Positions 2,670 to 56,196 of a DNA stretch of 64,000 nt are shown piece by piece (within the stretch, counting starts at the first letter, position 1; every line of letters starts with the position of its first letter). This DNA is from a virus (lineage: Duplodnaviria; Caudoviricetes). A model generated the notes under the pieces. It was not told where the DNA came from. It worked only from the letters and a program-made list of their open reading frames with translations, and ran no database searches. The DNA lies in the IMG/VR virus record IMGVR_UViG_3300028603_000002, positions 107,909 to 171,908 of that record, one strand, 5' to 3'. The position numbers and the translations under genes were made by a program.

Positions 2670-3300
2670 TACCACTGAGCGAAGCGAAGTGTTGAAGTAA
2701 AGTGTATAGGAATAGTTTAAGCAAGTAGAATAAAGTTATTAGGTTTGAAGGTTTGTATACGGAACGGAAGGAACGAAGTGACTGGAGTGGAGTGTATAGA
2801 AGGAATCTATACGATTAATAAAGTTATTAGTTTTACCTATATCCTGGAGATAAGTATAATTAAAGGTCTAGTTAATATTATATACAGGGGTAAGTAAAGA
2901 TTTTAAAAGTACTTTGAAATACAAAGTGGATAATATATGAAAAATAAACTGTAAGGGTTGCTCTGAGTCTTCGCTTGATCTCCACAATTCCCAAACTATA
3001 TTAAACTTTAATCTAATACCAAATCTTAATAAAACCAAATATCCTATTGTTGGGTGTAAAAAATCCGCGGCCTACAAAAATAAGATCAAAAGATTTATAA
3101 ACTTTAATCCACTAAAACCAAATAAAACTAAAGTTTCATAGAAATAAATACTAAACAACTTCACTCCAGTCACTCCAGTCACTTCACTTCACTACACTAT
3201 GTTACGTTTCACTTAGTTCCTTTCGTTCAGTACATAAACCTAGGAATCAATTAAACATTAGTATTTGGTTATCTCCTATGTATTCATTAACTTTATTATC
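2670..3300. repeat. mirror-symmetric non-coding region with imperfect inverted repeats
   Basis: GGTTTGTATACGGAACGGAAGGAAC (2750) versus GTTCCTTTCGTTCAGTACATAAACC (3216); GAAGTGACTGGAGTG versus CACTCCAGTCACTTC. Confidence 0.7.
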
Positions 3301-3659: not shown

Positions 3660-3691
3660 TTTGGAAATCTGAAAAACTTTACTTATCTTTA
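3660..3691 (+). promoter_or_regulatory. early promoter
   Basis: TTTG-N20-TATCTTTA. Confidence 0.7.
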
Positions 3692-4318: not shown

Positions 4319-4379
4319 CCTTGCAGCTAACATCCATATAAACTGTACATAAAATAGCAGAAATTAAAACAATAACATT

Positions 4380-4913
4380 ATGATAAACAATATAGTCATT
4401 AAAAATGAAACCCGTGAAATGGGGAGGAAAATAATTAAATACTTCAATGATCGAGGTATTGATACACGTATACTTAATGGCACAGCTTGCGCGGAAGAAA
4501 TGCATAACAATATATACTATGGAGTTATTGATGGTTATTTTGATAACTACACCTTAAAATATGTAGAAAGAGCAGGGGCTAAAATAATAACGCTACCTGA
4601 ATACCCAAAAGTAATGAGGGTAGCGCATGATAAATATTCTACCAGAACCCAACGTGTGGTCATAGGTACAGCAGATGCTGGCACCCATATCCAATATGTT
4701 GCATATAGAGATGCAAAAACATTAGATGATATACCATATCCCACTGAATTCAGGCTGTGGGACTATGCGGAAGATATTACAGAAACAGAACCTATCCTAA
4801 TAGGAAATAGAGAAGTAGAAGTAACTGAAGATGGAATAAAGGTAGGTTGTACACAGGTAGACAATGAAACAATAAAAAAGATATATAACTTAAAATTTAA
4901 AGATAATGAGTAG
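4380..4913 (+). CDS. hypothetical protein, N-terminal domain paralogous to 7100-7648
   Basis: Shared RGxDT...YYGVIDGxFDNYTL..VE.A.A.II.LP. Confidence 0.75.
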   Translation: MINNIVIKNETREMGRKIIKYFNDRGIDTRILNGTACAEEMHNNIYYGVIDGYFDNYTLKYVERAGAKIITLPEYPKVMRVAHDKYSTRTQRVVIGTADAGTHIQYVAYRDAKTLDDIPYPTEFRLWDYAEDITETEPILIGNREVEVTEDGIKVGCTQVDNETIKKIYNLKFKDNE

Positions 4914-5469: not shown

Positions 5470-5690
5470 GCTTTACTCCTACTATTCCAGTTACAATCCA
5501 CTTCGCCTCCACTTCGCCTCCGTTACACTCCGGCTCAGTATACATATCTTCAAATCTATTCCACTTTACTCCTATTATCCCAGTTACACTCCGGCTCAAT
5601 ATACATATCTTCAAATCTATTCCACTTCACTCCAGTCACTTTACTCCTATTATCCCAGTTACACTCCGGCTCAGTATACAAACCTTTGTT
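5470..5690. repeat. three imperfect tandem copies of a ~75-90-bp unit
   Basis: CTTTACTCCTA(C/T)TAT(T/C)CCAGTTACA...CTCCGGCTCA(G/A)TATACA at about 5471, 5563 and 5639. Confidence 0.8.
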
Positions 5691-5722
5691 ATACCCGTAG
5701 TACACAAATAAACAATGAAATA

Positions 5723-5755
5723 CTTGTATATCTCAGAAAAATTCATTATCTTTAT
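5723..5755 (+). promoter_or_regulatory. early promoter (near-identical to 17450-17481)
   Basis: TTGTATATCTCAGAAAAATTCATTATCTTTATTATG. Confidence 0.65.
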
Positions 5756-5778
5756 TATGTAAATAAAAAGTAGAAGTT

Positions 5779-7099: not shown

Positions 7100-7648
7100 T
7101 TAGCTTTTGATTATTACCTGGTCAACGCCCAATTTCTCGGCTATTTCCTCCATTGTAAGCTCCATTATAATTTTGGGCGGAGTGTATTTGTACTCGTCGG
7201 TGTAGAATAGATCGTCAATGCTACCTTTGATGTACTTATCTGCCTTCTCGGGCGCCAAAACTGAATCCCGCGAGATTATTCCGTCCTTTTTGGCAAATAA
7301 ATATAGAAGGTGCTTGTTTTCGCTGACTGAGTCGCGACCATATAACCAACGATACCCCAACTGAATAAGCCTCACCTGAATAGCTCTTGAAAGTTCAGCG
7401 GTAGGCACATTAAACACATAGCCGCCGATTGAAGGTAATTCAATTATTTCAGCGTTGGCTTTCTCTACTTGACGCAATGTGTAATTATCGAATTCCCCGT
7501 CAATAACTCCGTAATACCTGTAGGAATCACCATCAGATTTACAAGAGGTTCCTACAAGGTGGCGTGTATCAAATCCCCGACTTTTCCAATACTCAATGAC
7601 CTTTGCCCCGTGGTCGGGCGTTAGTGCTTCAATTACTTGGTTTTTCAT
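7100..7648 (-). CDS. hypothetical protein, paralog of 4380-4913
   Basis: Shared N-domain; C-terminal ELTMEEIAEKLG motif. Confidence 0.75.
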   Translation of the reverse strand: MKNQVIEALTPDHGAKVIEYWKSRGFDTRHLVGTSCKSDGDSYRYYGVIDGEFDNYTLRQVEKANAEIIELPSIGGYVFNVPTAELSRAIQVRLIQLGYRWLYGRDSVSENKHLLYLFAKKDGIISRDSVLAPEKADKYIKGSIDDLFYTDEYKYTPPKIIMELTMEEIAEKLGVDQVIIKS

Positions 7649-8160
7649 TTTACAAAAGTTTTTGTTCGTTCTAAAATCTCATCCCCCAACATCCTGCGAA
7701 CAATATCGGCAGTTTGGCGTTGGTTGGCCGCTTTGTCTGAGGCAGTACGGTCAGCAGCAGCAGCAGCAGCAGAAGAATTACCACAAACAGCACAATAAGC
7801 AGCATCAGCAGCAGCAGAACGATAACCAACAGTAACAGCAGCAGCAGCAGCAGCACGATAAGCAGCCTGCAACTCTTCCTCCGTAAGCAATCCCTCTCCG
7901 TAGGCAATAGCCGCATCAACACCCTTTATGCTGCGCGCATCTTTCATCAAATGCCTGACCGTGTTCGCACAGTGTCCTGCGCAGCCGACTAATTTACGGC
8001 GATAAACGCCCGCTTTCTTCGCCCACCATAGCAGCCAATCGCCACGATGGCAGTCGGCTAAGGTTTGGGTAGGGGTGCGGTCGCCAAGCCAGTCAATGGC
8101 ATCTTCGCAGGCAGGACCTAAATGGCCTTCGTCTGATAGTAGAAATTCTCTGAATGTCAT
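7645..8160 (-). CDS. Imm5-like / Ala-rich helical phage protein
   Basis: ACEDAIDW...CHRGDWLLW...AAAAA...QTADIVR; GCA repeats encode poly-Ala. Confidence 0.65.
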   Translation of the reverse strand: MTFREFLLSDEGHLGPACEDAIDWLGDRTPTQTLADCHRGDWLLWWAKKAGVYRRKLVGCAGHCANTVRHLMKDARSIKGVDAAIAYGEGLLTEEELQAAYRAAAAAAVTVGYRSAAADAAYCAVCGNSSAAAAAADRTASDKAANQRQTADIVRRMLGDEILERTKTFVK

Positions 8161-8581: not shown

Positions 8582-8610
8582 TTCTTTTTGTTACCTTAAA
8601 TTTCAAAATT

Positions 8611-8700
8611 GCCAGTAGGGTGAGGGTCGAACTCACAATATAGCTTCTGAATAAAGTGGGTTGCCAATTATTATCCTTTTCCCTAACGCTCCTAGACCAG
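8611..8700 (-). tRNA. tRNA-like remnant (T-arm only)
   Basis: Minus strand GTGAG-TTCGACC-CTCAC is a perfect T-arm; no convincing full cloverleaf. Confidence 0.25.
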
Positions 8701-8767
8701 TCTTATACTTTGTTACTTGATGCTGGTTTTAATTAAGCCTTTCTAATTAGAACCTTTTGATTATACT

Positions 8768-8800
8768 ATAAATATAAGAAAGATCTTTCAAAGTACCAAA
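8768..8800 (-). promoter_or_regulatory. early promoter
   Basis: Minus strand TTTGGTACTTTGAAAGATCTTTCTTATATTTA. Confidence 0.6.
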
Positions 8801-8842: not shown

Positions 8843-8872
8843 CTGGAGCTCCTAAGTGGAGCTCCAGATTTT
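8843..8872. terminator. perfect 10-bp hairpin at the left end of the cassette array
   Basis: CTGGAGCTCC-taagt-GGAGCTCCAG. Confidence 0.55.
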
Positions 8873-9011
8873 AAAAATATATGGTATGGTGCAGAGTTGC
8901 AAACTCTGTTTTGCCAACAAAAGAACTATGGCTAACAGCACCTAACCTCAATAAATTATCACGGTATTCATCGGCTGTAAAGTTTTCAAAGTTTGTGGTT
9001 TCTATATTCAT
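8871..9011 (-). CDS. small cassette ORF (46 aa) reading through an attC left arm
   Basis: Manual translation MNIEPQTLKTF...LRLGAVSHSSF. Confidence 0.35.
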   Translation of the reverse strand: MNIETTNFENFTADEYRDNLLRLGAVSHSSFVGKTEFATLHHTIYF

Positions 9012-9035
9012 TTGTACTAATTTTAAGTTGAAGAT

Positions 9036-9057
9036 GTTAAGCTTATACGGATGTTAG
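9036..9057 (+). repeat. attI-like repeated site, copy 1 of 17
   Basis: GTTAAGCTTATACGGATGTTAG; other copies at 9600, 9959, 10228, 10476, 10826, 11481, 11789, 12083, 12356, 13130, 13390, 13733, 14208, 15611, 16326, 16666. Confidence 0.8.
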
Positions 9058-9284
9058 CAAACATTTTCCAACCCACACCGCACTTGAATATTTCCAAGTT
9101 CCAATTCTCTTTCAATATCTTCAATATCTCTCCAACAATCTACTCCAACTGTATAACTATACCATCCACAAAAATCTTCAATACTATCATCAAAATAACC
9201 TTCTGAATATATTTCATATTCAAAACCATCGACAAATTCTTCTATTGTCGGTATTCTATATCCTTTTCTTAATTCTTCTGCCAT
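9054..9284 (-). CDS. cassette gene, hypothetical
   Basis: 76 aa; stop codon lies inside the GTTAG core. Confidence 0.75.
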   Translation of the reverse strand: MAEELRKGYRIPTIEEFVDGFEYEIYSEGYFDDSIEDFCGWYSYTVGVDCWRDIEDIERELELGNIQVRCGLENVC

Positions 9285-9297
9285 CGCTAAAAACGTT

Positions 9298-9391
9298 TGC
9301 TAACAAGGTATATATGCAATACCCTATTAAGGTTTGTACTAAATTTTAAAGTTTGGTGCAAGGGTGCTGCATATATACCCAACCGTTAGCC
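9298..9391 (+). repeat. complete attC-like site
   Basis: GCTAAC...GGTATATATGCAATACCCT / AGGGTGCTGCATATATACC...AACCGTTAGC (17/19 paired). Confidence 0.8.
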
Positions 9392-9607
9392 ACCATTTGA
9401 CGACCGTTGTACTTCGACTGCAATTTCTTCAAGCAATTCAAGTATTTCATTTGCCCAAGTGTGGTCTATGTTTATTTTTGATACCTGAGTGTCAAATCCG
9501 AGCTTTTTAGCAACATCCATATCGTGTCGCATTTCGCCCTTGAATCTCCTGTATTCTTCTTTTTTCTTTGTGATGAGTTCTAATACTTTTTCCATAACCG
9601 TTATCAT
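9386..9607 (-). CDS. cassette gene, hypothetical helical protein
   Basis: 73-aa ORF. Confidence 0.65.
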   Translation of the reverse strand: MITVMEKVLELITKKKEEYRRFKGEMRHDMDVAKKLGFDTQVSKINIDHTWANEILELLEEIAVEVQRSSNGG

Positions 9608-9622
9608 TTATACAGGTGTTGA

Positions 9623-9913
9623 CTACTCACCAATATAGTGTGTTTCAAAATCATAACCATCATTTACCTTTTGAAGTTTACCTTCGTCAAGATTTATGAT
9701 TTCTCTTATATTTTTAAGTTTAGTGTCAGCAATTTCTTTTGTGTGTATTTCAATATCAATACCTCCAGAACCGTCACCATCAATTTGAATTGGCAATAAT
9801 CTGTTTGCACCAACATCACCACAATATTGTATTTTTCTGAGAGCAATCATAAAATCTTTTAAATCTTCATCAGAAATTGCTGTAATTCGCAAGTCAATAA
9901 ATTTTCGTTCCAT
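9623..9913 (-). CDS. cassette gene, hypothetical
   Basis: 96 aa with a DGDGS motif. Confidence 0.7.
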   Translation of the reverse strand: MERKFIDLRITAISDEDLKDFMIALRKIQYCGDVGANRLLPIQIDGDGSGGIDIEIHTKEIADTKLKNIREIINLDEGKLQKVNDGYDFETHYIGE

Positions 9914-9995
9914 ATTGTCGTTTTAAGTCGTTAAAATTATGTGCGCATAGCCATAACCGTTACCATTTATACGGGTATTGTAGCACATACGCTCA

Positions 9996-10199
9996 CTACT
10001 TTTTCGGTTTCAATTTACCGTCTGCACATTTAGGGCAGTATATTGTTTGATGTTTTGTAATTCTCCACCCTTTTTTACTCCACGCACTGGCAGCATCATA
10101 CGGGTCGCAATCCATTTCTCTTCCAATAGTTCTACACTTATGGCACATTATTGTGTTTTCAGTAGTACAATGTTCGTATAGTTCATGTATTTCATCCAT
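9996..10199 (-). CDS. cassette gene, Zn-ribbon protein
   Basis: CHKC...GW...CPKC. Confidence 0.7.
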   Translation of the reverse strand: MDEIHELYEHCTTENTIMCHKCRTIGREMDCDPYDAASAWSKKGWRITKHQTIYCPKCADGKLKPKK

Positions 10200-10250
10200 C
10201 TCCGTTCGTTTTAAGATGTTAGTAATAGTTTATAAGGGTATTATCGGCAA

Positions 10251-10463
10251 TTATTCCCAAGTAATTTCCACCATTTTTGCATCTTCCATCATTTTCATTA
10301 ATCCGCAAAATTCTCTCCAATGATATTCAGTTATTGTTTCACCTATACTATTACTAAGTTTATTTAAACAGTTGTATATCTCTGTATTAATATAACTACC
10401 GCTAACAACAGGTGTACTTGATGCTTGTGTTTCTGCCATTTGTAAGTTCGGTTCTTTTTTCAT
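10251..10463 (-). CDS. cassette gene reading through an attC left arm
   Basis: PVVSGS is the antisense translation of ACTACCGCTAACAAC. Confidence 0.65.
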   Translation of the reverse strand: MKKEPNLQMAETQASSTPVVSGSYINTEIYNCLNKLSNSIGETITEYHWREFCGLMKMMEDAKMVEITWE

Positions 10464-10508
10464 GTTGATTAGTTGGTTGGTTTATACGGGTGTTATAGGC
10501 AATTGCCA

Positions 10509-10757
10509 CTAAAGTATCTCTCTACATTCGGGACAATAATTTTCAGCAATTTGTTGAACCCATTTTTTATTTTTATGTTCACATCGTGGCAACTGTTCGC
10601 TTTGCCGTACAACATTGTATAAATCCAATTGCTTACGTGCTTCAATCAATTGAGCTTCCAACCAATCCTTGTAGTTGTCGAGGTCAAAGTGTATGTCTGT
10701 TTCACCAACCGTTTCAGGATGGTCAAGTCTAAATTCTTCTTCAAATGTATATCTCAT
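10509..10757 (-). CDS. cassette gene partly encoded in an attC loop, C-terminal Zn ribbon
   Basis: YNVVRQSEQL...CEH...CPEC. Confidence 0.7.
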   Translation of the reverse strand: MRYTFEEEFRLDHPETVGETDIHFDLDNYKDWLEAQLIEARKQLDLYNVVRQSEQLPRCEHKNKKWVQQIAENYCPECREIL

Positions 10758-10803
10758 AATTTCTGTTTTTTAATTCGCCCTACGCATACAATCGACCGTT
10801 AGC
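10605..10803 (+). repeat. large attC-like site containing coding sequence
   Basis: TACAAC-ATTGTAT ... ATACAAT-CGACCGTTAGC arms. Confidence 0.6.
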
Positions 10804-10855
10804 GTTCAGCCTATCGCTGCGGGTAGTTAAGTTTATACGGGTGTTAGGTGTAATG

Positions 10856-11134
10856 TCAACACCATTCTACGCTAATCACTTTTAGTTTACACCCATCAAC
10901 ATCATTTATTACATGCCCTTCCTTGGGGTGAGAGTCTGTAATTGATATTGGTTCATTTGTCGGTTCACACCCCATTTTGAACAATAGTCTTGAACCTTTA
11001 GGTAAAAATGCTTTTGAGGTCTTTGTGATGAACCAAGTTTTTAACTTTTCGTTACCCCAAGCAAATCGAACAACGCTACACCTAACATCCGCTATAGTGC
11101 ACGTATGTTCTGTTGTTTTTGTAATATTTTGCAT
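10856..11134 (-). CDS. cassette gene starting inside an attC loop
   Basis: HTCTIADVRCS is the antisense translation of the attC left arm. Confidence 0.65.
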   Translation of the reverse strand: MQNITKTTEHTCTIADVRCSVVRFAWGNEKLKTWFITKTSKAFLPKGSRLLFKMGCEPTNEPISITDSHPKEGHVINDVDGCKLKVISVEWC

Positions 11135-11199
11135 AACTCAAAGTTTATTTCTGTTTGGATGCGTTATTGAAGCCACGCACCATAGCTTTACCGTTAGGA
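11080..11199 (+). repeat. complete attC-like site
   Basis: CCTAAC..GCTATAGTGCACGT / ACGCACCATAGC..ACCGTTAGG. Confidence 0.75.
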
Positions 11200-11203
11200 G
11201 AAG

Positions 11204-11461
11204 TTAAAGAGAAAACCAATCACTTTCCTCTTGTCTACTCAGAAGCTCCTCAACAGCCTCTTTGGTAGCAGGACAAGCGGAGTAAAAACAATTCTTTGCT
11301 TTCACCTCAAGTTGCTTCAGCTTTTCAAAGTCTCCGTCCACTAATTGAAAAAGAAACAGAGTTTGCTCGTTGCTGTGATTAGTCCGATCGGTTAACCAAT
11401 TAAGTCGTTCTTTATCAAGCTCGTACTTATAGGTATCTTTGCGTCCATACTTCAATTCCAT
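11204..11461 (-). CDS. cassette gene, hypothetical
   Basis: 85-aa ORF. Confidence 0.7.
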   Translation of the reverse strand: MELKYGRKDTYKYELDKERLNWLTDRTNHSNEQTLFLFQLVDGDFEKLKQLEVKAKNCFYSACPATKEAVEELLSRQEESDWFSL

Positions 11462-11511
11462 ATTCTATTAGCTTTACGATGTTACTGTTTATACGGGTGT
11501 TAGACGCAACG

Positions 11512-11769
11512 CTAAGAAACCAACCTACCTTCGACATTTTCTTTCATTTTGATTAACTCATCCCTATAACCAGAACCACCATCTTGGTTGGAATAGGGCA
11601 TTTGCAAGTGTTCATTTATTTTTACCAACAACTTAGCTGTTTTCACTTTGTTATCCTGATGCTGGTCAATCCATTTATTGTATTTACGAATAACTTTGTT
11701 TAGTTTGGTTCTACCTTCTTTCCACCAAGATATACCTACATTTTCATCCCACTCTACTATTTTTTCCAT
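11512..11769 (-). CDS. cassette gene, hypothetical
   Basis: 85-aa ORF. Confidence 0.7.
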   Translation of the reverse strand: MEKIVEWDENVGISWWKEGRTKLNKVIRKYNKWIDQHQDNKVKTAKLLVKINEHLQMPYSNQDGGSGYRDELIKMKENVEGRLVS

Positions 11770-11817
11770 ATTCCGTTCGCTTTACGATGTTACTGTTTAT
11801 ACGGGTGTTGTGTGTAA

Positions 11818-12012
11818 TTAAAGCAAGCCATCGTTATTTTCGCCCATCATCGTATCAACGGCTTTTTCAGCATCTTTAGCCGCACTTTTAAGCAGCTTCT
11901 TTGTGTTTTCAGGTTCGTTTCCTGTGGCTACATCTACCACGTCTTTTACAATTGCAACAGGTGTAAGTGCTGTTTTTACTGCTGCTGAAATTACGTTTGT
12001 TAAGAATCCCAT
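11818..12012 (-). CDS. cassette gene, small amphipathic protein
   Basis: Likely start MGFLTNVISAAVKTALTPVAIVKDVVDV at 12012 (track ORF extends to 12174). Confidence 0.65.
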   Translation of the reverse strand: MGFLTNVISAAVKTALTPVAIVKDVVDVATGNEPENTKKLLKSAAKDAEKAVDTMMGENNDGLL

Positions 12013-12112
12013 TTGATTAAAATTAACTGCTGCCAACAATGTAGTAAGGCACAGGCAGCGTTTGTGCTTATCGCTGTGGGTGGTTGAGTTTATACGAGGG
12101 GTAGGTGTAATA

Positions 12113-12316
12113 CTAAAGATTCCTACTAACCAACCCTGTTCCATTACACCAAGTACAATCTTCTTCATTACCAAAATCGTCTATTTCAATTTTACCGCCA
12201 CCCCAACAAACAGTACATTCCAATAATTCCTTAGTGGAAGTACTGCTGCCAACAGCACCTAAATCGCTATTGGCGGTGCTGTGGTTGTTCTTACTTTCGT
12301 TCTTACTTTCGTTCAT
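12113..12316 (-). CDS. cassette gene, DnaJ-type Zn-finger (CxxCxGxG x2)
   Basis: CTVCWGGG and CTWCNGTG; LGAVGSS comes from an attC arm. Confidence 0.7.
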   Translation of the reverse strand: MNESKNESKNNHSTANSDLGAVGSSTSTKELLECTVCWGGGKIEIDDFGNEEDCTWCNGTGLVSRNL

Positions 12317-12380
12317 TACGGTTTAAGTTTTACCGAGTTTCCTAAATTGAGGGTAGTTATGTTTATACGGGTGTTGTGCT

Positions 12381-12785
12381 TCATGCAAGGAAACTCCCGT
12401 GCTTAATTATGAAGTACAGTTTATTAGGGTCTCCGCCTAAATCAGGCTTGCCCCATCCGATCTCAATTCCTTTGTGTTCCATTTTCAATATCCTTTCCTT
12501 ATCAGTTGATTTTGGATAACCCAATGTCATTGTGTTTGTAAGGAATGGCTTAAAACCAATCATACTTCTTTTCAATTTATCCCCTGCAATACTTGACAGA
12601 TAGGCGTTTATAGATTGTTTGTCCAAGTAATCCCAATCATATCCAGACGTGTACTTAAAAACCTTCTTATAGTCAAATACAAGTCTTTTAAACCAGTAAT
12701 CGTTTATGTCTCGATAATCTTCGGTTTTTACGCCCGATTTGGTCATGTCGAACCATTTTTTTTTAAGTGATAATTGCAAATTCAT
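12381..12785 (-). CDS. cassette gene, ASCH/PUA-like domain protein
   Basis: LSLKKKWFDMTKSGVKTEDYR...TLGY...GKPDLG. Confidence 0.75.
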   Translation of the reverse strand: MNLQLSLKKKWFDMTKSGVKTEDYRDINDYWFKRLVFDYKKVFKYTSGYDWDYLDKQSINAYLSSIAGDKLKRSMIGFKPFLTNTMTLGYPKSTDKERILKMEHKGIEIGWGKPDLGGDPNKLYFIIKHGSFLA

Positions 12786-12807
12786 TTTGTATCAGTTAAG
12801 CACGAAA

Positions 12808-12936
12808 GCACAACAATTGCTATAAAACATAGGGCGTTCGTGCGGTTATTAAAGTGTAGGGTTGTTTTTCAGGTGTTCGGTGTTTTCGAACAATTCGGCT
12901 ATCTATACCCTACGTTTCATGGCATAGCCGTTAGCG
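12808..12936 (+). repeat. complete attC-like site
   Basis: GCACAAC..TGCTATAAAACATAGGG / CCCTACGTTTCATGGCA..GCCGTTAGC (14/17 paired). Confidence 0.8.
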
Positions 12937-12937
12937 T

Positions 12938-13126
12938 TCATTTTGACGACGCTCTCCGTACTTCTTCATTAAGCACATCGTAATTGTCTTTAATGTACGC
13001 CTTTACATCGCCACTGCATTTGTTATTGTCATACAACCAAATCAGATAAGACGCAGGGACATTTATCATTTTATAACCTTGATATTTTCCCCAAGGCATA
13101 GGGCTTTCATCTGTTAAGTTTGCCAT
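12938..13126 (-). CDS. cassette gene, DUF3820-like
   Basis: Likely start MANLTDES at 13126; MPWGKYQG...VPASYLIWL. Confidence 0.75.
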   Translation of the reverse strand: MANLTDESPMPWGKYQGYKMINVPASYLIWLYDNNKCSGDVKAYIKDNYDVLNEEVRRASSK

Positions 13127-13163
13127 TTTGTTTAAGTTTATACTGGTGTTGTAGCACATACGA

Positions 13164-13379
13164 TCACTGCACTTTTGGTCTCCAATGTGTGATTTCGTAA
13201 TCAACATCACCATACTGTCTGTAATCGTAATGTCCAATTCCTGCCTCAATCCACCAAGTATCCCCCAAGTAGTAGCCAACAAGTATCTCATCATTATAGT
13301 CTTGCCTTAGCTCACAATCAATAGGCTCATCGTTTGCGTCTAATTCAGGCAGTCTTTCATTTACATTTATCCAATTCAT
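13164..13379 (-). CDS. cassette gene, DUF551-like
   Basis: MNWINVNERLP...ITHWRP. Confidence 0.8.
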   Translation of the reverse strand: MNWINVNERLPELDANDEPIDCELRQDYNDEILVGYYLGDTWWIEAGIGHYDYRQYGDVDYEITHWRPKVQ

Positions 13380-13417
13380 ATCAGTTCACGTTAAGTTTAT
13401 ACGGGTGTTAGCAGCAA

Positions 13418-13657
13418 TTATGCCCTTTTAGGATAGTGCTTCATACATTTGAAACAAGCCATTTCATCATATAGTGGTTTTAACTCAACATTGCAATCAG
13501 GGCATAACTGTTCGCTTTGCCCTACAACATCATGTATGTGTAAGGCTATGTTTAGTGCTTTATCAGCAAGTTTGTAAACAGTTGTAGTTCTAGCAAGCTG
13601 TTGTGTTTGCATTTGATGTTCCTTTATTTCTTCAAGTATCTTAATTATATCTTCCAT
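13418..13657 (-). CDS. cassette gene partly encoded in an attC loop, Zn ribbon
   Basis: LHIHDVVGQSEQLCPDC...CFKC. Confidence 0.7.
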   Translation of the reverse strand: MEDIIKILEEIKEHQMQTQQLARTTTVYKLADKALNIALHIHDVVGQSEQLCPDCNVELKPLYDEMACFKCMKHYPKRA

Positions 13658-13712
13658 TTCTAATAATGTTTAGTGTGAATATTCGCCCTACATATACACC
13701 CGGCCTTTAGCG
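13519..13712 (+). repeat. large attC-like site containing coding sequence
   Basis: TACAAC..TGTATGTGTAAGGC / GCCCTACATATACA..GCCTTTAGC. Confidence 0.65.
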
Positions 13713-13764
13713 TCCAGCCTATCGCTGTGGGTGATTAAGTTTATACGGGTGTTATGTGCAAGCA

Positions 13765-14154
13765 CTACTGACCTGCTTCTTTATCAAGTTTTTTATAATG
13801 TCGTATAACATACGCAAGTTTATCTCTAAAATTAACCCTTCGCAATTGTTGAATAATGTCGCTGAATTTTTGTGCTTCATTATCAGGTATCATCGAAATT
13901 AGTATATCATCGTGTTCGCAATGTATAGTTTCCATAAAATCATCTTGTGTCAAGCCTTCATCACAATGGTCATACATTTTTAATCTTGATGCTATTTCAG
14001 CACAATATTTGTGAGTTTTCCAGTCGTAAACTTGACCATCGTATTTGTGAGTAGATTTTATATAAGTATCACCTTTAGGTATTCTACACGCACAAAAATT
14101 ACAACTATGTTCTTTAATGGCTTTCGTTTCTTTTGGGTATGTTAATGTTTCCAT
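13765..14154 (-). CDS. cassette gene, Zn-binding hypothetical
   Basis: KAIKEHSCNFC..IPKGDTY...WKTHKYC. Confidence 0.75.
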   Translation of the reverse strand: METLTYPKETKAIKEHSCNFCACRIPKGDTYIKSTHKYDGQVYDWKTHKYCAEIASRLKMYDHCDEGLTQDDFMETIHCEHDDILISMIPDNEAQKFSDIIQQLRRVNFRDKLAYVIRHYKKLDKEAGQ

Positions 14155-14238
14155 ATTTTAATCAAATTTTAGTTGTTAATAACCCGCTACTACATATATC
14201 GGATGCGGTTAAGTTTATACGGGTGTTGTAGGCAAGCT

Positions 14239-14484
14239 CTACTTACATCTGAAGTGAGTGAGTACTGCCATCGGATGTTCATCTTCATATCTACATTCCG
14301 TACCATCATCAAACCTACACAGGCAGTTTCGTTTTGCGTACTCATTGAATATTGATTCATTACCTTCAAATTCGAGCCAGCCACTAACAGCAAATAAATC
14401 CAATATTCTGTCAGCGGTATTGGCAACGCTTTCACCTATTATACACTTGTTTAATAGGTCGATAATTTGTTCTCTTTTTTCCAT
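14239..14484 (-). CDS. cassette gene, hypothetical
   Basis: ILDLFAVSGWL reads through the attC left arm GCCAGCCACTAAC. Confidence 0.65.
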   Translation of the reverse strand: MEKREQIIDLLNKCIIGESVANTADRILDLFAVSGWLEFEGNESIFNEYAKRNCLCRFDDGTECRYEDEHPMAVLTHFRCK

Positions 14485-14503
14485 ACTGTCTTTATTATTT
14501 AAG

Positions 14504-14719
14504 TTAGTTGTAATGTCTCCATACTAAGCCACTCGCCTTTATATTTACCAGTGTAAAAGGGTATATTGCAAAAGCTCTCCAAAAGAAGGAAACTTCGGCA
14601 TCAAGTGCGCTTAGTATCCCGATAGTGGCGTACCACATAATCCATAATCCCACTATAAGCACCACCGCTAACAATCTACGAAATGCATTCCTATTGGTTT
14701 CTTTATAATTTTCATCCAT
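14504..14719 (-). CDS. small membrane protein
   Basis: Two hydrophobic segments; contains CCACCGCTAAC. Confidence 0.6.
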   Translation of the reverse strand: MDENYKETNRNAFRRLLAVVLIVGLWIMWYATIGILSALDAEVSFFWRAFAIYPFTLVNIKASGLVWRHYN

Positions 14720-14766
14720 GATTCTATGTTTTGTGTTTATTTATTAAATTCTATGGTTCAACGCAT

Positions 14767-14997
14767 CTAATACTCTTCCGTTGGCAGAAATACAAGTTGG
14801 CCGTTATCCCATCCGCTCAGGTTAATTTCAATCGGCAAAAGTGACTCCTTGCCGTCATATATGCCGTGCGTGTATTGATGCAAAAACGCTAACTGCTCAT
14901 TCTCTGTCAACTCGCGGGTAACCTTAAACGACCCAGAGCCTATCGTTTCGCCAGTGTCACGTTGGTAAACTTTGAATCTGTATGCAAATCTTTGCAT
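14767..14997 (-). CDS. hypothetical protein
   Basis: 76-aa ORF. Confidence 0.6.
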   Translation of the reverse strand: MQRFAYRFKVYQRDTGETIGSGSFKVTRELTENEQLAFLHQYTHGIYDGKESLLPIEINLSGWDNGQLVFLPTEEY

Positions 14998-15015
14998 TCT
15001 AATTTTTCTCTAATG

Positions 15016-15393
15016 TTAGGCACAAGCACTACCGACACGCTCCAAAATAGCATCTGCGTGACAAGGAGAAGAAAGCGAGCAAAAACACGCTAAATCCTTT
15101 CCTTTTAGTTCGGTAATGCTTGGCGGAGTTGGCAAATAAGGTGCAATTGCTTTTAATTCACCATCAAGCCATCGGCCGTATAAATCAACAATATCTTTTG
15201 TTTCAAATCCACCTGAATAACTCCACATTATCCAAGGGTCTAATATTTTCCGATTAGTCGAGTAGCATTGAATAAAGCCATCATGTGTTAATCGAAATGG
15301 ATTTCCCCATTTAGTAGGTCTCCCTACATACTTTGCGTTTTCGGGCATTCTCCATCCCTTTGTTCGCCTTCTTTGTATTCGTTTCATAATCAA
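15016..15393 (-). CDS. DUF4326-like protein
   Basis: YVGRPTKWGNPF...ELKGKDLACFC...CHADAILE. Confidence 0.85.
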   Translation of the reverse strand: MIMKRIQRRRTKGWRMPENAKYVGRPTKWGNPFRLTHDGFIQCYSTNRKILDPWIMWSYSGGFETKDIVDLYGRWLDGELKAIAPYLPTPPSITELKGKDLACFCSLSSPCHADAILERVGSACA

Positions 15394-15399
15394 AATTTA

Positions 15400-15600
15400 T
15401 CACTTATTTGGTAGTTCTGGCAACTCCGTCCAATGAGAAGGGAACACGCTCTCCCCATTTACTACCCATGTTTTGCCATCTTTGTGTAAATGTCCAACCC
15501 TCATTATAGAGTCTTCACCTGTTTCTTGAAGTATTAGCAACACTTCTACTTCCGTATCGGGGGTATTGTAATTTACATCAAACCAAATTGTTTCATTCAT
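15400..15600 (-). CDS. DUF551-like protein
   Basis: WFDV...P...EVLL...SHWTELPELP. Confidence 0.75.
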   Translation of the reverse strand: MNETIWFDVNYNTPDTEVEVLLILQETGEDSIMRVGHLHKDGKTWVVNGESVFPSHWTELPELPNK

Positions 15601-15638
15601 ATCTGTTCACGTTAAGTTTATATAGGTGTTAGCAAACA

Positions 15639-16028
15639 TTAGGTAAGTGATATGTAATATTTTTTCTTTTGATTTTCGACTGCATCAACAAACCAACTTG
15701 GTAAGTTGTATTCAGTACATATTTTTTCAAACTCTATTTTAGGTAAGTAGCCTTTTGCTCTATCTTCTGCATACATTTTTATATGTAGGTTTACACTACC
15801 TTTCGTCTTTAATAGAGTTTTTAACTTTTCAGGTTCACAAGTTGGTTTTATTACACCATTAGTATCATATAGGTAAAAACATTCCTTTGCGGTTTTACCG
15901 TTTTTATCAAATTGTATCAATTCAATTCCTTTTTTATTATGATAGTATTCAGTACCATCAAAAGAAAAAATATTAGATACAGATAAGTACCAATTATAGT
16001 CTCGCTCAAAGTTTTTGCTGTATTTCAT
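15639..16028 (-). CDS. cassette gene, hypothetical
   Basis: Likely start MKYSKNF at 16028; flanked by complementary cassette ends. Confidence 0.7.
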   Translation of the reverse strand: MKYSKNFERDYNWYLSVSNIFSFDGTEYYHNKKGIELIQFDKNGKTAKECFYLYDTNGVIKPTCEPEKLKTLLKTKGSVNLHIKMYAEDRAKGYLPKIEFEKICTEYNLPSWFVDAVENQKKKYYISLT

Positions 16029-16061
16029 AACGTTTGCTAACAAAGTGTATGTGTAATAAGG

Positions 16062-16277
16062 CTACTTATCTACTACCTTTTCAACTTTCAACTCATAAAG
16101 CTCACCTTTGTATTTAAACTGAACTTTTTCTTCAAGCTGTAAAAGGTGTTGAGCTACTGCGCCAACAGCCGTATCTGTTACATCATGTTTTGTTTGCCCC
16201 CAAGTTCCGTTCTTCAAAACTCTTCCAGCAAATAATCTACTCGTTAAAGGTGAGCAACCTACTTTAAAATCTGACAT
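16062..16277 (-). CDS. hypothetical phage protein
   Basis: VGCSPLTSRLFAG...KHDVTD.AV.AVAQHL, a recurrent phage family pattern. Confidence 0.75.
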   Translation of the reverse strand: MSDFKVGCSPLTSRLFAGRVLKNGTWGQTKHDVTDTAVGAVAQHLLQLEEKVQFKYKGELYELKVEKVVDK

Positions 16278-16354
16278 AATCTTTTTGTTTTAATACTGAC
16301 TACTTTACATTCCATATCAGTTTCCGTTAAGTTTATATAGATGTTGACAGCCAT

Positions 16355-16621
16355 TTATTGAAACCACTGCTTAATCTGTTCTGTTCTTTGTTCGATCATC
16401 TCATTAATCTTTGGCAGCAATGGATAATTAGTTTCGTCAATCCAAACAGTTTCAGACTTACCATCTTTGCCTAATATAACTGTCGGAGTTGCTACAGAAT
16501 AAATTTCTGTTCTTTTAGCGTGGAGTTGTTGCAACTGGTTATCGTTCAAGATCGCTTCTGAAATTAAACGGGGGCGAAGAGCGTATTTATTCAATGTGGA
16601 GTTTTTGTCGTTATTGTTCAT
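16355..16621 (-). CDS. cassette gene, hypothetical
   Basis: 88-aa ORF. Confidence 0.6.
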   Translation of the reverse strand: MNNNDKNSTLNKYALRPRLISEAILNDNQLQQLHAKRTEIYSVATPTVILGKDGKSETVWIDETNYPLLPKINEMIEQRTEQIKQWFQ

Positions 16622-16672
16622 TTCGGTATTTCGTTTTAATCTTCCGCGCTGGCATAGCGGATGACGTTAAGT

Positions 16673-16927
16673 TTATCCGGGGTTGATTGTGTCTTGAAAC
16701 TTCTTCCTCAATGCTGACATCATAGCCTCAATAGCCCTGGGCATTTTTTTCACAACTTCATCTTTTGTTCGGCCCTGAACGACAACACCCTTAAGCTCCT
16801 TAATAATTCCTATGAACAATCCGGTTTTCTCATTATGAATTATCACCCCAGTGAAATTCTTGGTTTGTGCTTGTCTTCCCATGATAAGTGCTTTTGATTG
16901 ATGTATGAAATTAATTAGCTTCCACAT
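16673..16927 (-). CDS. HicB-like antitoxin-fold protein
   Basis: ELKGVVVQGRTKDEVVKKMPRAIE; probable start at 16882. Confidence 0.6.
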   Translation of the reverse strand: MWKLINFIHQSKALIMGRQAQTKNFTGVIIHNEKTGLFIGIIKELKGVVVQGRTKDEVVKKMPRAIEAMMSALRKKFQDTINPG

Positions 16928-17219
16928 GTAGTCCGGATTTTTTGAACTTTTTTATAGCATTCCTGAGATTCAGAGCCGTAATGTAGTAGCACTCCTTCCG
17001 GAGAATTAATTTGTTCCGTTTAACGTAACTCCCAGTTAACGACTCTACCGCTATATCCACCTCCTCCAACGGAGCTTCTGTCACTACCCCATCATCCCAT
17101 TGATACACTGTATGCCCAGGCTTCAGTCGTCGTGTACCGATAAAGCGGACTTTTTTCTCCTCCGCGGGGGTAACAATTTGCTGTTCTTGTTTAATTTGAT
17201 CTGGCTTAATCTCCTTCAT
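16911..17219 (-). CDS. hypothetical phage protein
   Basis: 102-aa ORF. Confidence 0.7.
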   Translation of the reverse strand: MKEIKPDQIKQEQQIVTPAEEKKVRFIGTRRLKPGHTVYQWDDGVVTEAPLEEVDIAVESLTGSYVKRNKLILRKECYYITALNLRNAIKKFKKSGLHVEAN

Positions 17220-17291: not shown

Positions 17292-17323
17292 TAAAGATAT
17301 GAAAAATATTTCAAAGTACCAAC
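17292..17323 (-). promoter_or_regulatory. early promoter facing into the island and cassette array
   Basis: Minus strand TTGGTACTTTGAAATATTTTTCATATCTTTA. Confidence 0.6.
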
Positions 17324-17449
17324 TATGAAGCGAAAGATGTTTCTAAATTTGACCCGACCGCGGGAAAATTTATAATATCAGGTACAAAGATAAAATTTAT
17401 TGTGTAATTATCGAAATTTTCAATTCAAATAATTTTCCTACATGTTTAT

Positions 17450-17481
17450 TTGGATATCTCCTAAAAATTCATTATCTTTAT
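17450..17481 (+). promoter_or_regulatory. early promoter
   Basis: TTTGGATATCTCCTAAAAATTCATTATCTTTA. Confidence 0.7.
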
Positions 17482-20013: not shown

Positions 20014-20045
20014 TTTGGTTTTTTGGTGGAAAATACTTATCTTTA
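20014..20045 (+). promoter_or_regulatory. early promoter
   Basis: TTTGGTTTTTTGGTGGAAAATACTTATCTTTA. Confidence 0.65.
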
Positions 20046-21350: not shown

Positions 21351-21355
21351 TATAT

Positions 21356-21388
21356 TTGGTTATATCAAATATATTCCTTATCTTTAAT
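21356..21388 (+). promoter_or_regulatory. early promoter
   Basis: TTTGGTTATATCAAATATATTCCTTATCTTTA. Confidence 0.65.
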
Positions 21389-22346: not shown

Positions 22347-22402
22347 TTCTTCAAATGTTTTAATTCATAATAAAGATAATGAAAATATCTTATATTTCCA
22401 AA

Positions 22403-24457: not shown

Positions 24458-24466
24458 ATATTTATA
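24458..24466 (+). promoter_or_regulatory. putative late promoter ATATTTATA
   Basis: ATATTTAT(A/T) also occurs at 27970, 29219, 37126, 45846, 54003 and 60262, just upstream of late genes. Confidence 0.55.
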
Positions 24467-32009: not shown

Positions 32010-32474
32010 TTTTATTAAACATTAATTTTTAATATGTTATACATTAATTTAAAAAAAATATCAAATTTACTGAAAAATAATTTAAAAAATATTTGGTTAT
32101 CTGAAAAAAAGTCTCTAACTTTAAGGCCTTATAAAGGTTAAAAGGTTAAAAGGTTAAAAGATATAAAGGGTATAAAGGGTATAAAGATTTAAAAGGTTAA
32201 ACATTAATTATTATTAAATAAAATATTTAAATAAATATAAAAAAGTAATATTAAGAAAGATTAGATTATATATTAAAAATAATTAGTAATTAATAAAATA
32301 TATATAATAATAAGTATAATATATAAAAGTATTATACTTTTTTTATGATTAAATATAATAAAGTTAATAGAAATTATATTTATATATAGTAAAAATAATG
32401 TTAAAAAATAAAACAAATAATTGTTTATTAACAGTATATACATTAATAAGTGTATTAATATATAGGACATAAAA
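32010..32474. other. extremely AT-rich intergenic region with short tandem repeats (candidate origin)
   Basis: (AAAGGTTA)x3 and (ATAAAGGGT)x2 at 32131-32200; very few G or C bases over about 450 bp. Confidence 0.4.
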
Positions 32475-34969: not shown

Positions 34970-35704
34970 ATGGCCCGTGGAAGGAAGAAGAAAAAAATGT
35001 ATTTTGATGTAGAGGTTGAAGAAGCGATTATTGAATATAACTCAATAACAGATAATTTTAGGAAAGAAAGATTATTTAATGACATAATTCACCCGGCATT
35101 AAAAAAGTTAAGTGAAAACTTAATACACAAATATAAATTCTATTATTACGATACAACATATCGCGATCTAAAACATGCAACAATTGCTTTTGTTCTTAGT
35201 AAGTTACATATGTACACCGAAGGGAAAGGAAAGGCATTCTCATACTTCTCTATTGTTGCAAGAAATTATCTTATAGTACAGAATAGAGCAATGTTTAAAT
35301 CAATATCAGAAAAGGAAGACCTTGCTGTTATTGACGATGAAAGAAATCTTAATGTAGAAATAAATGAAGAGGAGAGAGCAAGCGAGTTAAAAGATTTTAT
35401 TGATTTATGGGTAGAATGGATGGATTCTACATTAGAGGATCATTTTACAGAGAGTGAAATGAACATAGCAGATTCAATTATTGAGCTATTTAAAATACGT
35501 GAAAATATAGAAATCTTTAATAAGAAATACTTATACATTCTAATCCGAGAACGAACTGGTAAATCAAATACCCAGAATATCACGTCCGTAGTGAATAAAG
35601 TTAAAAATATTTTCTATAAAATGTATAAAATATATTTGAATACTGGGAAAGTAGACTTTGATGAATATTTATTAGTAAAAGAGGAAGATGACGATGGACT
35701 TTAA
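34970..35704 (+). CDS. phage late-transcription sigma factor (gp55-like)
   Basis: YFD...AIIEYN...KLSENLI...GKAFSYFSIVARNYLI sigma region-2-like motif; sits ahead of the structural module. Confidence 0.7.
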   Translation: MARGRKKKKMYFDVEVEEAIIEYNSITDNFRKERLFNDIIHPALKKLSENLIHKYKFYYYDTTYRDLKHATIAFVLSKLHMYTEGKGKAFSYFSIVARNYLIVQNRAMFKSISEKEDLAVIDDERNLNVEINEEERASELKDFIDLWVEWMDSTLEDHFTESEMNIADSIIELFKIRENIEIFNKKYLYILIRERTGKSNTQNITSVVNKVKNIFYKMYKIYLNTGKVDFDEYLLVKEEDDDGL

Positions 35705-52391: not shown

Positions 52392-53987
52392 ATGGAAAAC
52401 ACATTAAAAGATATAATTCTACAAGAAGCATTCTTAATGGAAGCGCTCCCATTAAGTACTGCGAAGCAGTACGTATCTATAGAAAGAAATCCAAAGATTC
52501 AACAAAGATTAGATGATATATTTGAAAAATTATCAAAGATTCCGAATGCTAAAGCATCGAGAAACCAAAACAGAATCTACATTCCATTAAAGAAAAAAGA
52601 AAATGGAGAAAAAAGTGATATTGAAAATGAAATATCACAAATTCTACAACAGAATAACTATGAATTATCAGACTATAAGAAAGGTTTAGTTAAAGACAAG
52701 TATGGAAGAGAGACTAAGATTGGTAAAGTATTAACCAAACTCAATAAACAAGACTTATTAAACAAATTCAATACTGACAAGAAAAGAGAATCTTCAAAAA
52801 ATGTAGATTCATATCTAGTTTTCTCAAAACATCCGTATGATGTAGCAGGAAGTGCTACAGATAGAGGATGGTCTAGTTGCATGAATATTTTTAGTGGAAG
52901 TAACAAAAAATACATTCATTATGATATAAAAGAAGGAACAATAGTCTGTTATTTAATCTCTAGCAATGATTTAAATATAAACAAACCAATAGCAAGACTT
53001 TTAATTAAACCATTTATTAATGTAAGAGATAAGGATGATGTTCTATATGTTCCCGAAGATAAAATCTATGGAACTGCTCCTAATACATTTAAGGATCAAA
53101 TAGTAAAAATATTCGAAAAATTTCAAAATGAAAAATTAGGATCATTTAAATTAGTAGATACGTTATATTGTGATAGCAAAAGTGAAGTAACAATATTAGA
53201 TCCTAAAATTCGACAATATTTCGATGGAAAAAAGAACCCGGGAACCAAAGAGGAAGTACAGAAAATAATTAATATTTTAGGTATCGAAAATTACAAAATA
53301 AATGAAGACCTAAGTGTTGATGTAAATGAAGATGTTAATATTAGCGAAAAGAAGCTAAAAACAATTCCCATAAAATTTGGTAAAGTAGGTGGAAATTTTG
53401 ATTGTCGCTACAACAATCTAACATCCTTACAAGGAGCACCAGAAAGTGTAGGTGGAAATTTTTATTGTTACAACAACAATCTAACATCCCTACAAGGAGC
53501 ACCAGAAAGTGTAGGTGGAAATTTTGATTGTTACAACAACAATCTAACATCCCTACAAGGAGCACCAGAAAGTGTAGGTGGATATTTTGGTTGTTCCAAC
53601 AATAATCTAACATCATTACAAGGAGCACCAGAAAGTGTAGGTGGAAATTTTGCTTGTTACAACAACAATCTAACATCCCTACAAGGAGCACCAGAAAGTG
53701 TAGGTAGAAATTTTAGTTGTCGCTACAATAATCTAACATCCCTACAAGGAGCACCAAAGGAAGTAGGTAGAAGTTTTGCTTGTTCATACAACAATCTAAC
53801 ATCCCTACAAGGAGCACCAGAAAGTGTAGGTAGACATTTTGATTGTCGCTACAACAATCTAACATCCCTACAAGGAGCACCAGAAAGTGTAGGTGGAAAT
53901 TTTTATTGTTACAACAACAAAAAGAAATTCACAGAAGAAGAAGTAAGAAATGTAAGTAAGGTGAAAGGATCCATTTTTTATGATTAA
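52392..53987 (+). CDS. leucine-rich-repeat protein, copy 1
   Basis: N-domain plus 8.5 copies of the 21-aa VGGNFxCxNNNLTSLQGAPES. Confidence 0.85.
   Translation: MENTLKDIILQEAFLMEALPLSTAKQYVSIERNPKIQQRLDDIFEKLSKIPNAKASRNQNRIYIPLKKKENGEKSDIENEISQILQQNNYELSDYKKGLVKDKYGRETKIGKVLTKLNKQDLLNKFNTDKKRESSKNVDSYLVFSKHPYDVAGSATDRGWSSCMNIFSGSNKKYIHYDIKEGTIVCYLISSNDLNINKPIARLLIKPFINVRDKDDVLYVPEDKIYGTAPNTFKDQIVKIFEKFQNEKLGSFKLVDTLYCDSKSEVTILDPKIRQYFDGKKNPGTKEEVQKIINILGIENYKINEDLSVDVNEDVNISEKKLKTIPIKFGKVGGNFDCRYNNLTSLQGAPESVGGNFYCYNNNLTSLQGAPESVGGNFDCYNNNLTSLQGAPESVGGYFGCSNNNLTSLQGAPESVGGNFACYNNNLTSLQGAPESVGRNFSCRYNNLTSLQGAPKEVGRSFACSYNNLTSLQGAPESVGRHFDCRYNNLTSLQGAPESVGGNFYCYNNKKKFTEEEVRNVSKVKGSIFYD
53385..53918 (+). 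repeat. 63-bp tandem repeat (8 full + 1 partial)
   Basis: gta ggt gga aat ttt NNt tgt NNc NNc aac aat cta aca tcc cta caa gga gca cca gaa agt. Confidence 0.95.
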
Positions 53988-54024
53988 ATATATATCATAC
54001 CAATATTTATAAATAAAGAAAATT

Positions 54025-54498
54025 GTGGCAATAAAATACTACCCAGAAGATAGTGGTGAAGGATATGGTACATTAGGAATTAAATTTCCAATGAATGCTA
54101 ATAAAGCAGTTAGTAATTCAGGTGGATTTAACATGTCCAGAACTACTGAAGAACAGGCAGTGAGTAATTATATTAATTTACTTCTTACATTTCCTGGTGA
54201 AAGATATATGCAACCAGATTATGGTATAGGAATACAAAGAAGATTATTTGAACAAAATACAGAATTATTTAGAGCTACAATAAGAGAAGATATTCTATTT
54301 GCTTGTAATATATGGTTACCGTATATAATCAATGATGAAATTAGAATTAATGCGGACGAACAAATACCAGGATTAGCAGGTAATGTAGAACATGGAGTAA
54401 GAGTAGAGATAATGTTTAGAGTTACAGAAAGTGGTGCAAATAGACGAATTACTTTATTCACTGCAGATGGGATTGTTAAAGGATTGGAAGTAGAATGA
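54025..54498 (+). CDS. baseplate wedge gp25/GPW-like protein
   Basis: NYINLLLTFPGERYMQPDYGIGI...LFE...WLPYI. Confidence 0.85.
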   Translation: MAIKYYPEDSGEGYGTLGIKFPMNANKAVSNSGGFNMSRTTEEQAVSNYINLLLTFPGERYMQPDYGIGIQRRLFEQNTELFRATIREDILFACNIWLPYIINDEIRINADEQIPGLAGNVEHGVRVEIMFRVTESGANRRITLFTADGIVKGLEVE

Positions 54499-56164: not shown

Positions 56165-56196
56165 TTTGGTTATAACCTAAAAAGATATTATCTTTA
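56165..56196 (+). promoter_or_regulatory. early-type promoter ahead of primase
   Basis: TTTGGTTATAACCTAAAAAGATATTATCTTTA. Confidence 0.65.

Follow-up and report, generated by a model that had tools for sequence, protein, structure and literature searches.

In T4-type phages, mobile regulatory cassettes known as PeSLs (promoter-early stem-loops) have been described (Arbiol et al. 2010, PMC2839356; Comeau et al. 2014, PMC4122927), in which host sigma-70-type promoters are fused to a stem-loop terminator, and for which both insertions and deletions between sister phages and mini-circles have been shown (PMC2839356, PMC4122927). Here we describe a 28-nt motif that recurs between small genes of the phage genome IMGVR_UViG_3300028603_000002, a virus record of 171,908 bp with direct terminal repeats that is rated complete; the window is its final 64 kb (64,000 nucleotides, positions 107,909-171,908), and coordinates refer to the window unless marked as genome. 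An original prediction, made from the window alone, had taken the motif for an attI-like recombination site and had offered a promoter element for each gene as the alternative. The evidence favours that alternative: with a probability of roughly 55%, the motif serves as a phage-specific promoter that belongs to a second, middle-like class, and its copies double as homology patches for modular shuffling. In phage T4, middle promoters sit inside early-type operons.

Copies of the motif were defined by a scan with a fixed consensus together with alignment, the degenerate ones being placed by in-register alignment. All 17 copies that had been listed are present on the minus strand, to within 1-5 nt of the positions given (Table 1), and extending the scan to the whole genome, as the original prediction had advised, added seven on the + strand, one within the window and six directly before it (genome 104793-106850). 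These 24 copies are confined to 20 kb (genome 104.8-124.6 kb), with none elsewhere in the 172 kb, rather than being scattered genome-wide; ten of them match the 20-mer at three or fewer mismatches, against 0.01 expected. As the genes of the longer array lie on the minus strand, the motif reads YAACACCCGTATAAACTTAAC in gene direction, and in full it is TTGC-N3-YAACACCCGTATAAACTTAAC, 28 nt in all. Its orientation is that of the neighbouring small genes in 24/24 copies, on both strands, and every copy is intergenic. The conserved letters form blocks on one side only: TTGC comes first, separated by 3 nt from the 21-mer, of which the ATAA inside TATAAA is invariant, and after a sharp end there follow variable leaders of 3-95 nt to the next ATG. 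The TTGC block (GCAA on the + strand, 3 nt beyond the final GTT) is weaker than the 21-mer, and conservation does not end at that GTT as had been claimed; the stop codon said to follow closely is indeed there, 0-13 nt before the 21-mer in gene direction and adjoining the TTGC block. In four copies the motif's own TAA is this stop codon.

The copies belong to two convergent arrays of small accessory genes, opposed in strand. The minus-strand array of 27 genes, which includes DUF4326, DUF551 and UPF0150-like genes, several PHROGs of unknown function and many ORFans, carries the motif at 17 of its 26 junctions, and five closely packed genes in a row (14239-15600) have no copy; the + strand array, home of the + strand copies, has 14 small genes. 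Pfam gave no matches for ten flanking genes. Among the junctions without a motif, two (9294-9304 and 16031-16041, minus strand) carry GTTAGCAAACG, the reverse complement of the motif's TTGC-TAAC start, which may represent inverted motif remnants, and a third (9307-9379, minus strand) holds a perfect 12-bp inverted repeat, GGTATATATGCA / TGCATATATACC, with a loop of 49 nt.

What precedes the arrays is a signal of another kind. Among the products of the phage genome are a large terminase, a portal, a gp23-type major capsid protein, a tail sheath, a baseplate wedge, a family-B DNA polymerase and a ribonucleotide reductase; the capsid protein shares 50% identity with its counterpart in Flavobacterium phage vB_FspM_immuto (hereafter immuto) and 54% with that of 'Microcystis' phage Mel-JY01, with remoter matches to Rhodothermus phage RM378 and classical T4-like phages, and Cellulophaga phages are the source of short DNA matches to the genome. 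Given these capsid and hallmark-gene matches and the Cellulophaga DNA matches, it is a distant T4-like myovirus whose host is very probably a marine member of the Bacteroidota. Other assemblies of the same phage, including one ENA contig (L123), are all collinear with the genome. Promoters of the Bacteroidota have a consensus of TTTG at -33 and, some 19-21 nt further on, TANNTTTG at -7, with a near-invariant T at -8 to -6 (PMC6847099). A second repeat family in the genome, TTTGG followed after ~20 nt by TTATCTTTATTATG, fits this -33/-7 consensus (PMC6847099) and is located at operon heads; the window contains 17 matches to the pattern TTTG-N18-21-TANNTTTA, where 4.7 would be expected, and the class is seen also in two further stretches (L013 and L014). 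Each array thus appears, from its sequence, to be an operon headed by a host-type promoter, with the motif as an internal signal of another kind, and because this separate class heads the arrays the motif would therefore constitute a second signal class inside early-type operons. Within the minus-strand array, sigma-70-type sites are not enriched, and the motif fits no sigma-70 promoter. Elsewhere in the window, a 51-nt and a 29-nt unit, each in three tandem-like copies spaced 61-93 nt apart, occupy the intergenic region 5471-5708 (+), directly followed by a host-type promoter-like site (repeat copy 5721-5767); these units could be iterons or regulator sites.

Could the motif be a host-type promoter on the opposite strand? 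There its TAAGTTTA resembles the -7 box TANNTTTG and fits TANNTTTA, a variant of this phage's own host-type class, and antisense RNA running into the upstream gene might then shut the array off. We consider this very unlikely: the TA of the box is present in only ~14/24 copies while the best-conserved letters lie elsewhere, a G at -9 is almost never found in Flavobacterium promoters (PMC6847099), and there is no conserved -33 partner.

Comparison with relatives shows how equivalent junctions are served in another phage. In immuto (MW353176, 60-76 kb of the record) a small-gene array has at least 20 junctions with one conserved element each, just before a small + strand gene; the element consists of TTGC, ~19 nt that are often hairpin-forming, and then TATATTTAGGTA with a conserved leader (for example at 7898-7952 of the stretch MW353176 60001-80000). 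By its sequence this would be a host-type promoter with a stem-loop, that is, a PeSL as in T4-type phages (PMC2839356, PMC4122927), and the same kind of junction is apparently served by a different word in our phage than in immuto. The motif itself was not seen above control level in immuto, Mel-JY01, the 484-kb relative LR756508 or five IMG/VR relatives; a repeat survey of one relative (G001) found just one unrelated repeat of three copies, and the loci of distant homologues of a neighbouring 620-aa gene have host-type promoters only. Scans for the exact motif in IMG/VR returned single, chance-level matches only, and a scan of metagenomes for the exact 20-mer returned none. The TTGC-extended pattern gave two single metagenome matches, one of which is probably real: at the very end of contig Ga0209307_1056825 (1355-1379, minus strand), 25 nt are identical to the 13734 copy, TTGC included, and are followed by a hairpin and a T run, the remainder of the contig being unrelated to the phage genome.

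We hypothesize that the motif is a lineage-specific intergenic control signal, with TATAAA as a -10-like box, the conserved block ending at about -1 and TTGC near -28. The ordinary host-type promoter at the head would first turn on each array, and RNA polymerase, re-programmed by a putative phage factor, would then read the motif; promoter activity, timing and the reading factor are all features that we infer from sequence. General recombination at the copies would swap, duplicate and delete gene modules, as with PeSL cassettes in T4-type phages; with 24 nearly identical copies of 28 nt so close to one another, these would also act as homology patches. One argument for the promoter reading is that immuto has a host-type promoter at the equivalent junctions.

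Several observations weigh against it. The motif misfits the host sigma-A -7 box, and it cannot be a host-type box of this kind because AAA stands at the near-invariant T-8 to T-6 (consensus in PMC6847099); its TTGC, moreover, lies 9-13 nt from TATAAA, too near for a standard -35/-33 contact. No phage sigma factor (Sigma70_r2), MotA (PF09158), AsiA (PF09010) or T7-type RNA polymerase was found in the genome. The arrays of no relative show the motif, so that comparison lends no backing to a conserved transcription machinery. In the minus-strand array, nine of 26 junctions work without the motif. Lastly, spacing to the upstream stop codon is tighter than spacing to the next start codon.

A role as a late promoter, of the type read by gp55 at TATAAATA, was considered and rejected: the motif does not stand before structural genes, which makes such a role unlikely, TATAAAC matches only 6/8 of TATAAATA, TATAAATA is not enriched, and the only gp55-like candidate is weak. 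T4 gp55 was not found in the genome, either as protein or as two PHROGs. The candidate is an immuto ORF that matches the T4 gp55 late-sigma profile weakly (E 0.008) and has a clear homologue here, a 244-aa gene at 34970-35704 (+; 37% identity, E 1e-39), which is a candidate for a divergent late sigma factor. The word ATATTTATA, at 24458, 27970, 32376, 37126/37132, 54003 and 60262 (+), lies 13-27 nt before the start codons of several structural genes, with 8/9 occurrences on the + strand; it may be a late-gene signal of the phage, with raw counts not above chance (9 versus 6.5).

The same architecture is open to an RNA-level explanation. With one host-type promoter at the head of each array and no internal terminators (the array shows no enrichment of intrinsic terminators), the motif would certainly be transcribed, and it might serve in the long, polycistronic early mRNAs from the head promoters as the binding or cleavage site of a phage protein for the processing, stability or translation of each cistron, comparable to T4 RegA/RegB. 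That the motif is strand-specific, lies between cistrons and keeps a tight distance to the stop codon is consistent with such a role, which we regard as a serious rival, albeit on balance a doubtful one. For a nuclease or operator site, 28 nt of conserved linear sequence is long, the 3-95 nt between motif and ATG speak against a direct role in initiation, and no conserved fold is apparent: leaders fold no more stably than shuffled sequence (z -0.2 to -1.6; single-sequence folds), and an Rfam search gave no match.

The leaders themselves are shared among copies in a way that bears on how the arrays evolve. A leader subfamily of ~60 nt follows the copies at 10826, 12083, 13734 and genome 105094 and is thus found in both arrays; a second, with a short CCGC/GCGG hairpin, follows those at 14208, 16666 and genome 106830; a third, 'TGRTAACGGTTATG', follows those at 9601, 9960 and genome 106415; and a fourth, 'GTGAACNGATATG', those at 13390 and 15611. 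The arms at 9959, 14208 and 16666 that had been likened to attC turn out to belong among these subfamilies, as short hairpins with the unremarkable folding scores given above. Flanks are also mosaic. In the 9960 copy, ~25 nt upstream and the motif as far as TATAAA are as in 13131 and the remainder as in 9601 and genome 106415, while the 11482 and 11790 copies have the same motif and entire leader to ATGGAA, yet unrelated genes behind. Within this one genome, similarity between copies breaks at differing points: inside TATAAA, at the motif's 5′ edge, or 25 nt upstream. Mosaic flanks with such unfixed borders argue for homologous exchange among dispersed repeats and not for site-specific crossover at one G/TT, and the copies do seem to recombine, in what looks like homologous exchange with variable junctions rather than a cut at a fixed GTT.

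This mosaicism also bears on the reading of the motif as an integron-like, site-specific recombination site (attI/attC-like), with the recombinase acting in trans or lost, leaving an orphan array. In its favour, the sites are laid out as an array with one at each junction, ACTTAAC at the 3′ end conforms to RYYYAAC, a short hairpin ending in GTT follows two or three copies (14208, genome 106830), and the identical 25-nt copy does occur on one unrelated metagenome contig. Against this, a search of all 171,908 bp of the complete genome at E <= 0.1, with positive controls, found no tyrosine or serine recombinase (PF00589 or PF00239); most junctions are hairpin-free, some with only 4-11 nt between motif and ATG, and neither in nor beside the motif consensus is there an inverted repeat; and a conserved site with variable flanks is the reverse of attC, quite apart from the differing points at which similarity between copies breaks. 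Homologous genes elsewhere also lack the motif. Specifically, cassette gene 13765-14154 has homologues 74-88% identical that are common in phage contigs of quite different kinds, and in four other phage contigs the motif lies on neither side of them; unlike attC, the site thus goes with the resident genome rather than with the gene. A linear, mostly hairpin-free word, co-oriented with genes in two opposed arrays, is unlikely to be the attI-like site originally predicted, and a recombination site of integron type in general we judge very unlikely. There is similarly only a slim chance that an undescribed phage gene-capture system recognizes the 28-nt word, with a recombinase in trans, a linear non-hairpin site and single-gene insertion and excision; were this true, the two arrays would be orphan cassette libraries and the 25-nt copy on Ga0209307_1056825 (L138) a second platform.

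Table 1. Motif copies, host-type promoter-like sites and associated features of the two small-gene arrays (window coordinates unless marked as genome).
Feature	Position	Strand	Basis
Minus-strand array, 27 small genes (46-134 aa)	8871..17219	-	ORF list, sequence, Pfam, PHROGs, gene calls on collinear ENA contig L123
Host-type (-33 TTG / -7 TATCTTTA) promoter-like site, ~75 nt ahead of the first gene of the minus-strand array	17293..17322	-	repeat families D9 and D4, sequence, PMC6847099 consensus
Motif copy, degenerate (GGATAAAC); stop codon of 84-aa gene inside	16666..16686	-	scan, alignment
Motif copy	16326..16346	-	scan, alignment
Motif copy, ATG 10 nt downstream	15611..15631	-	scan, alignment
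Motif copy, then short CCGC/GCGG hairpin leader	14208..14228	-	scan, fold, alignment
Motif copy with subfamily-A leader (~60 nt)	13734..13754	-	scan, repeat search, alignment
Motif copy, equal to consensus; ATG 10 nt downstream	13390..13410	-	scan, alignment
Motif copy, ATG 4 nt downstream	13131..13151	-	scan, alignment
Motif copy	12356..12376	-	scan, alignment
Motif copy, degenerate, subfamily-A leader	12083..12103	-	scan, repeat search, alignment
Motif copy; motif and leader to ATGGAA in common with 11482 copy	11790..11810	-	scan, repeat family D11, alignment
Motif copy	11482..11502	-	scan, repeat search, alignment
Motif copy, equal to consensus, subfamily-A leader	10826..10846	-	scan, repeat family D6, alignment
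Motif copy, ATG 11 nt downstream	10475..10495	-	scan, alignment
Motif copy, degenerate	10223..10243	-	scan, alignment
Motif copy, chimeric: upstream half like 13131 copy, downstream half like 9601 copy	9960..9980	-	repeat family D12, alignment
Motif copy, TATAAATGATAAC variant; ATG 5 nt downstream	9601..9621	-	scan, alignment
Motif copy, last of array; TAA is stop codon of upstream gene	9036..9056	-	scan, alignment
Perfect 10-bp hairpin without T run, 3 nt past stop of the array's last gene	8843..8867	-	read from sequence; not called by terminator scan
Next host-type promoter-like site past array end and its hairpin	8769..8800	-	repeat and pattern search
Isolated motif copy before 177-aa gene (4380-4913), downstream of host-type promoter-like sites 3264 and 3660	4328..4348	+	scan, repeat search, alignment
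Host-type promoter-like site directly before + strand array	genome 103,931-103,990	+ array	repeat search
Divergent host-type promoter-like site for + strand genes from 17503 on	17449..17480	+	repeat and pattern search
Further host-type promoter-like sites, minus	1345-1376, 2007-2038, 22371-22402	-	repeat/pattern search
Further host-type promoter-like sites, plus	3264-3295, 3660-3691, 20014-20045, 21355-21386, 32092-32123, 56165-56196	+	repeat/pattern search

The hairpin just past the last gene of the minus-strand array may be the terminator of the array. Beyond it, at ~8610-8720 (-), lie a tRNA-like T-arm (GTGAG TTCGACC CTCAC) and an acceptor-like end, for which neither ARAGORN nor Rfam made a call. 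Two other repeats were seen in the window: ~17 copies of a 63-nt coding repeat (leucine-rich-repeat-like, TAACATCCCTACAAGGAGCAC) in two large + strand genes at 53419-56052, and a CAG-rich, 9-nt periodic repeat on the + strand at 7743-7883, opposite the minus-strand gene 7645-8160.

If the motif is a promoter, it would represent a second temporal promoter class in T4-like phages of the Bacteroidota, whose transcription programme is essentially unstudied, and would point to a phage factor that retargets the polymerase of hosts that use an unusual sigma factor. Together with the immuto comparison, this would suggest that the plan of T4-type hyperplastic regions, one signal per small gene, has been kept in a distant host phylum while the signal was replaced. 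It also serves as a caution that the integron-like look of a phage array can stem from regulatory repeats.

How, then, does the motif compare with known systems? Integron attI/attC sites and CALIN arrays are similar in their one-directional runs of small, promoterless-looking genes, with a repeated site per junction and a terminal triplet of AAC/GTT type; they differ in that here there is no integrase, a hairpin is missing at most sites, the site does not travel with the gene, and it is the site that is conserved while its flanks vary. T4 middle promoters, in which a MotA box and a -10 are used through MotA/AsiA sigma appropriation, likewise form a second class inside early units before early genes, and in each case a box containing TGC stands upstream of a TA-rich, -10-like box. 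In contrast, our phage has no MotA/AsiA homologue, its box spacing is ~6-7 nt shorter, and the host sigma is of Bacteroidota type. The junction promoters of immuto come from a related phage and share the plan of a small-gene array whose junctions each carry a single conserved element, with a TTGC block first in both, whereas immuto uses a plain promoter of host type (TTGC, ~19 nt, TATATTTAG) and our motif has a spacing of 9-13 nt and TATAAAC. PeSLs are also short repeated intergenic elements, in dozens of copies, in hyperplastic small-gene regions of T4-like myoviruses; they too follow right after an upstream stop codon and ahead of an ORFan, with mosaic flanks that point to recombination between copies. 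Unlike PeSLs, the motif fits neither the Bacteroidota host consensus nor sigma-70, is without a stem-loop, terminator or attenuator, and occurs alongside a distinct host-type class placed at the array heads. In our analysis the best-supported comparison is that the motif is probably a variant of the PeSL idea, minus the host promoter and the stem-loop.

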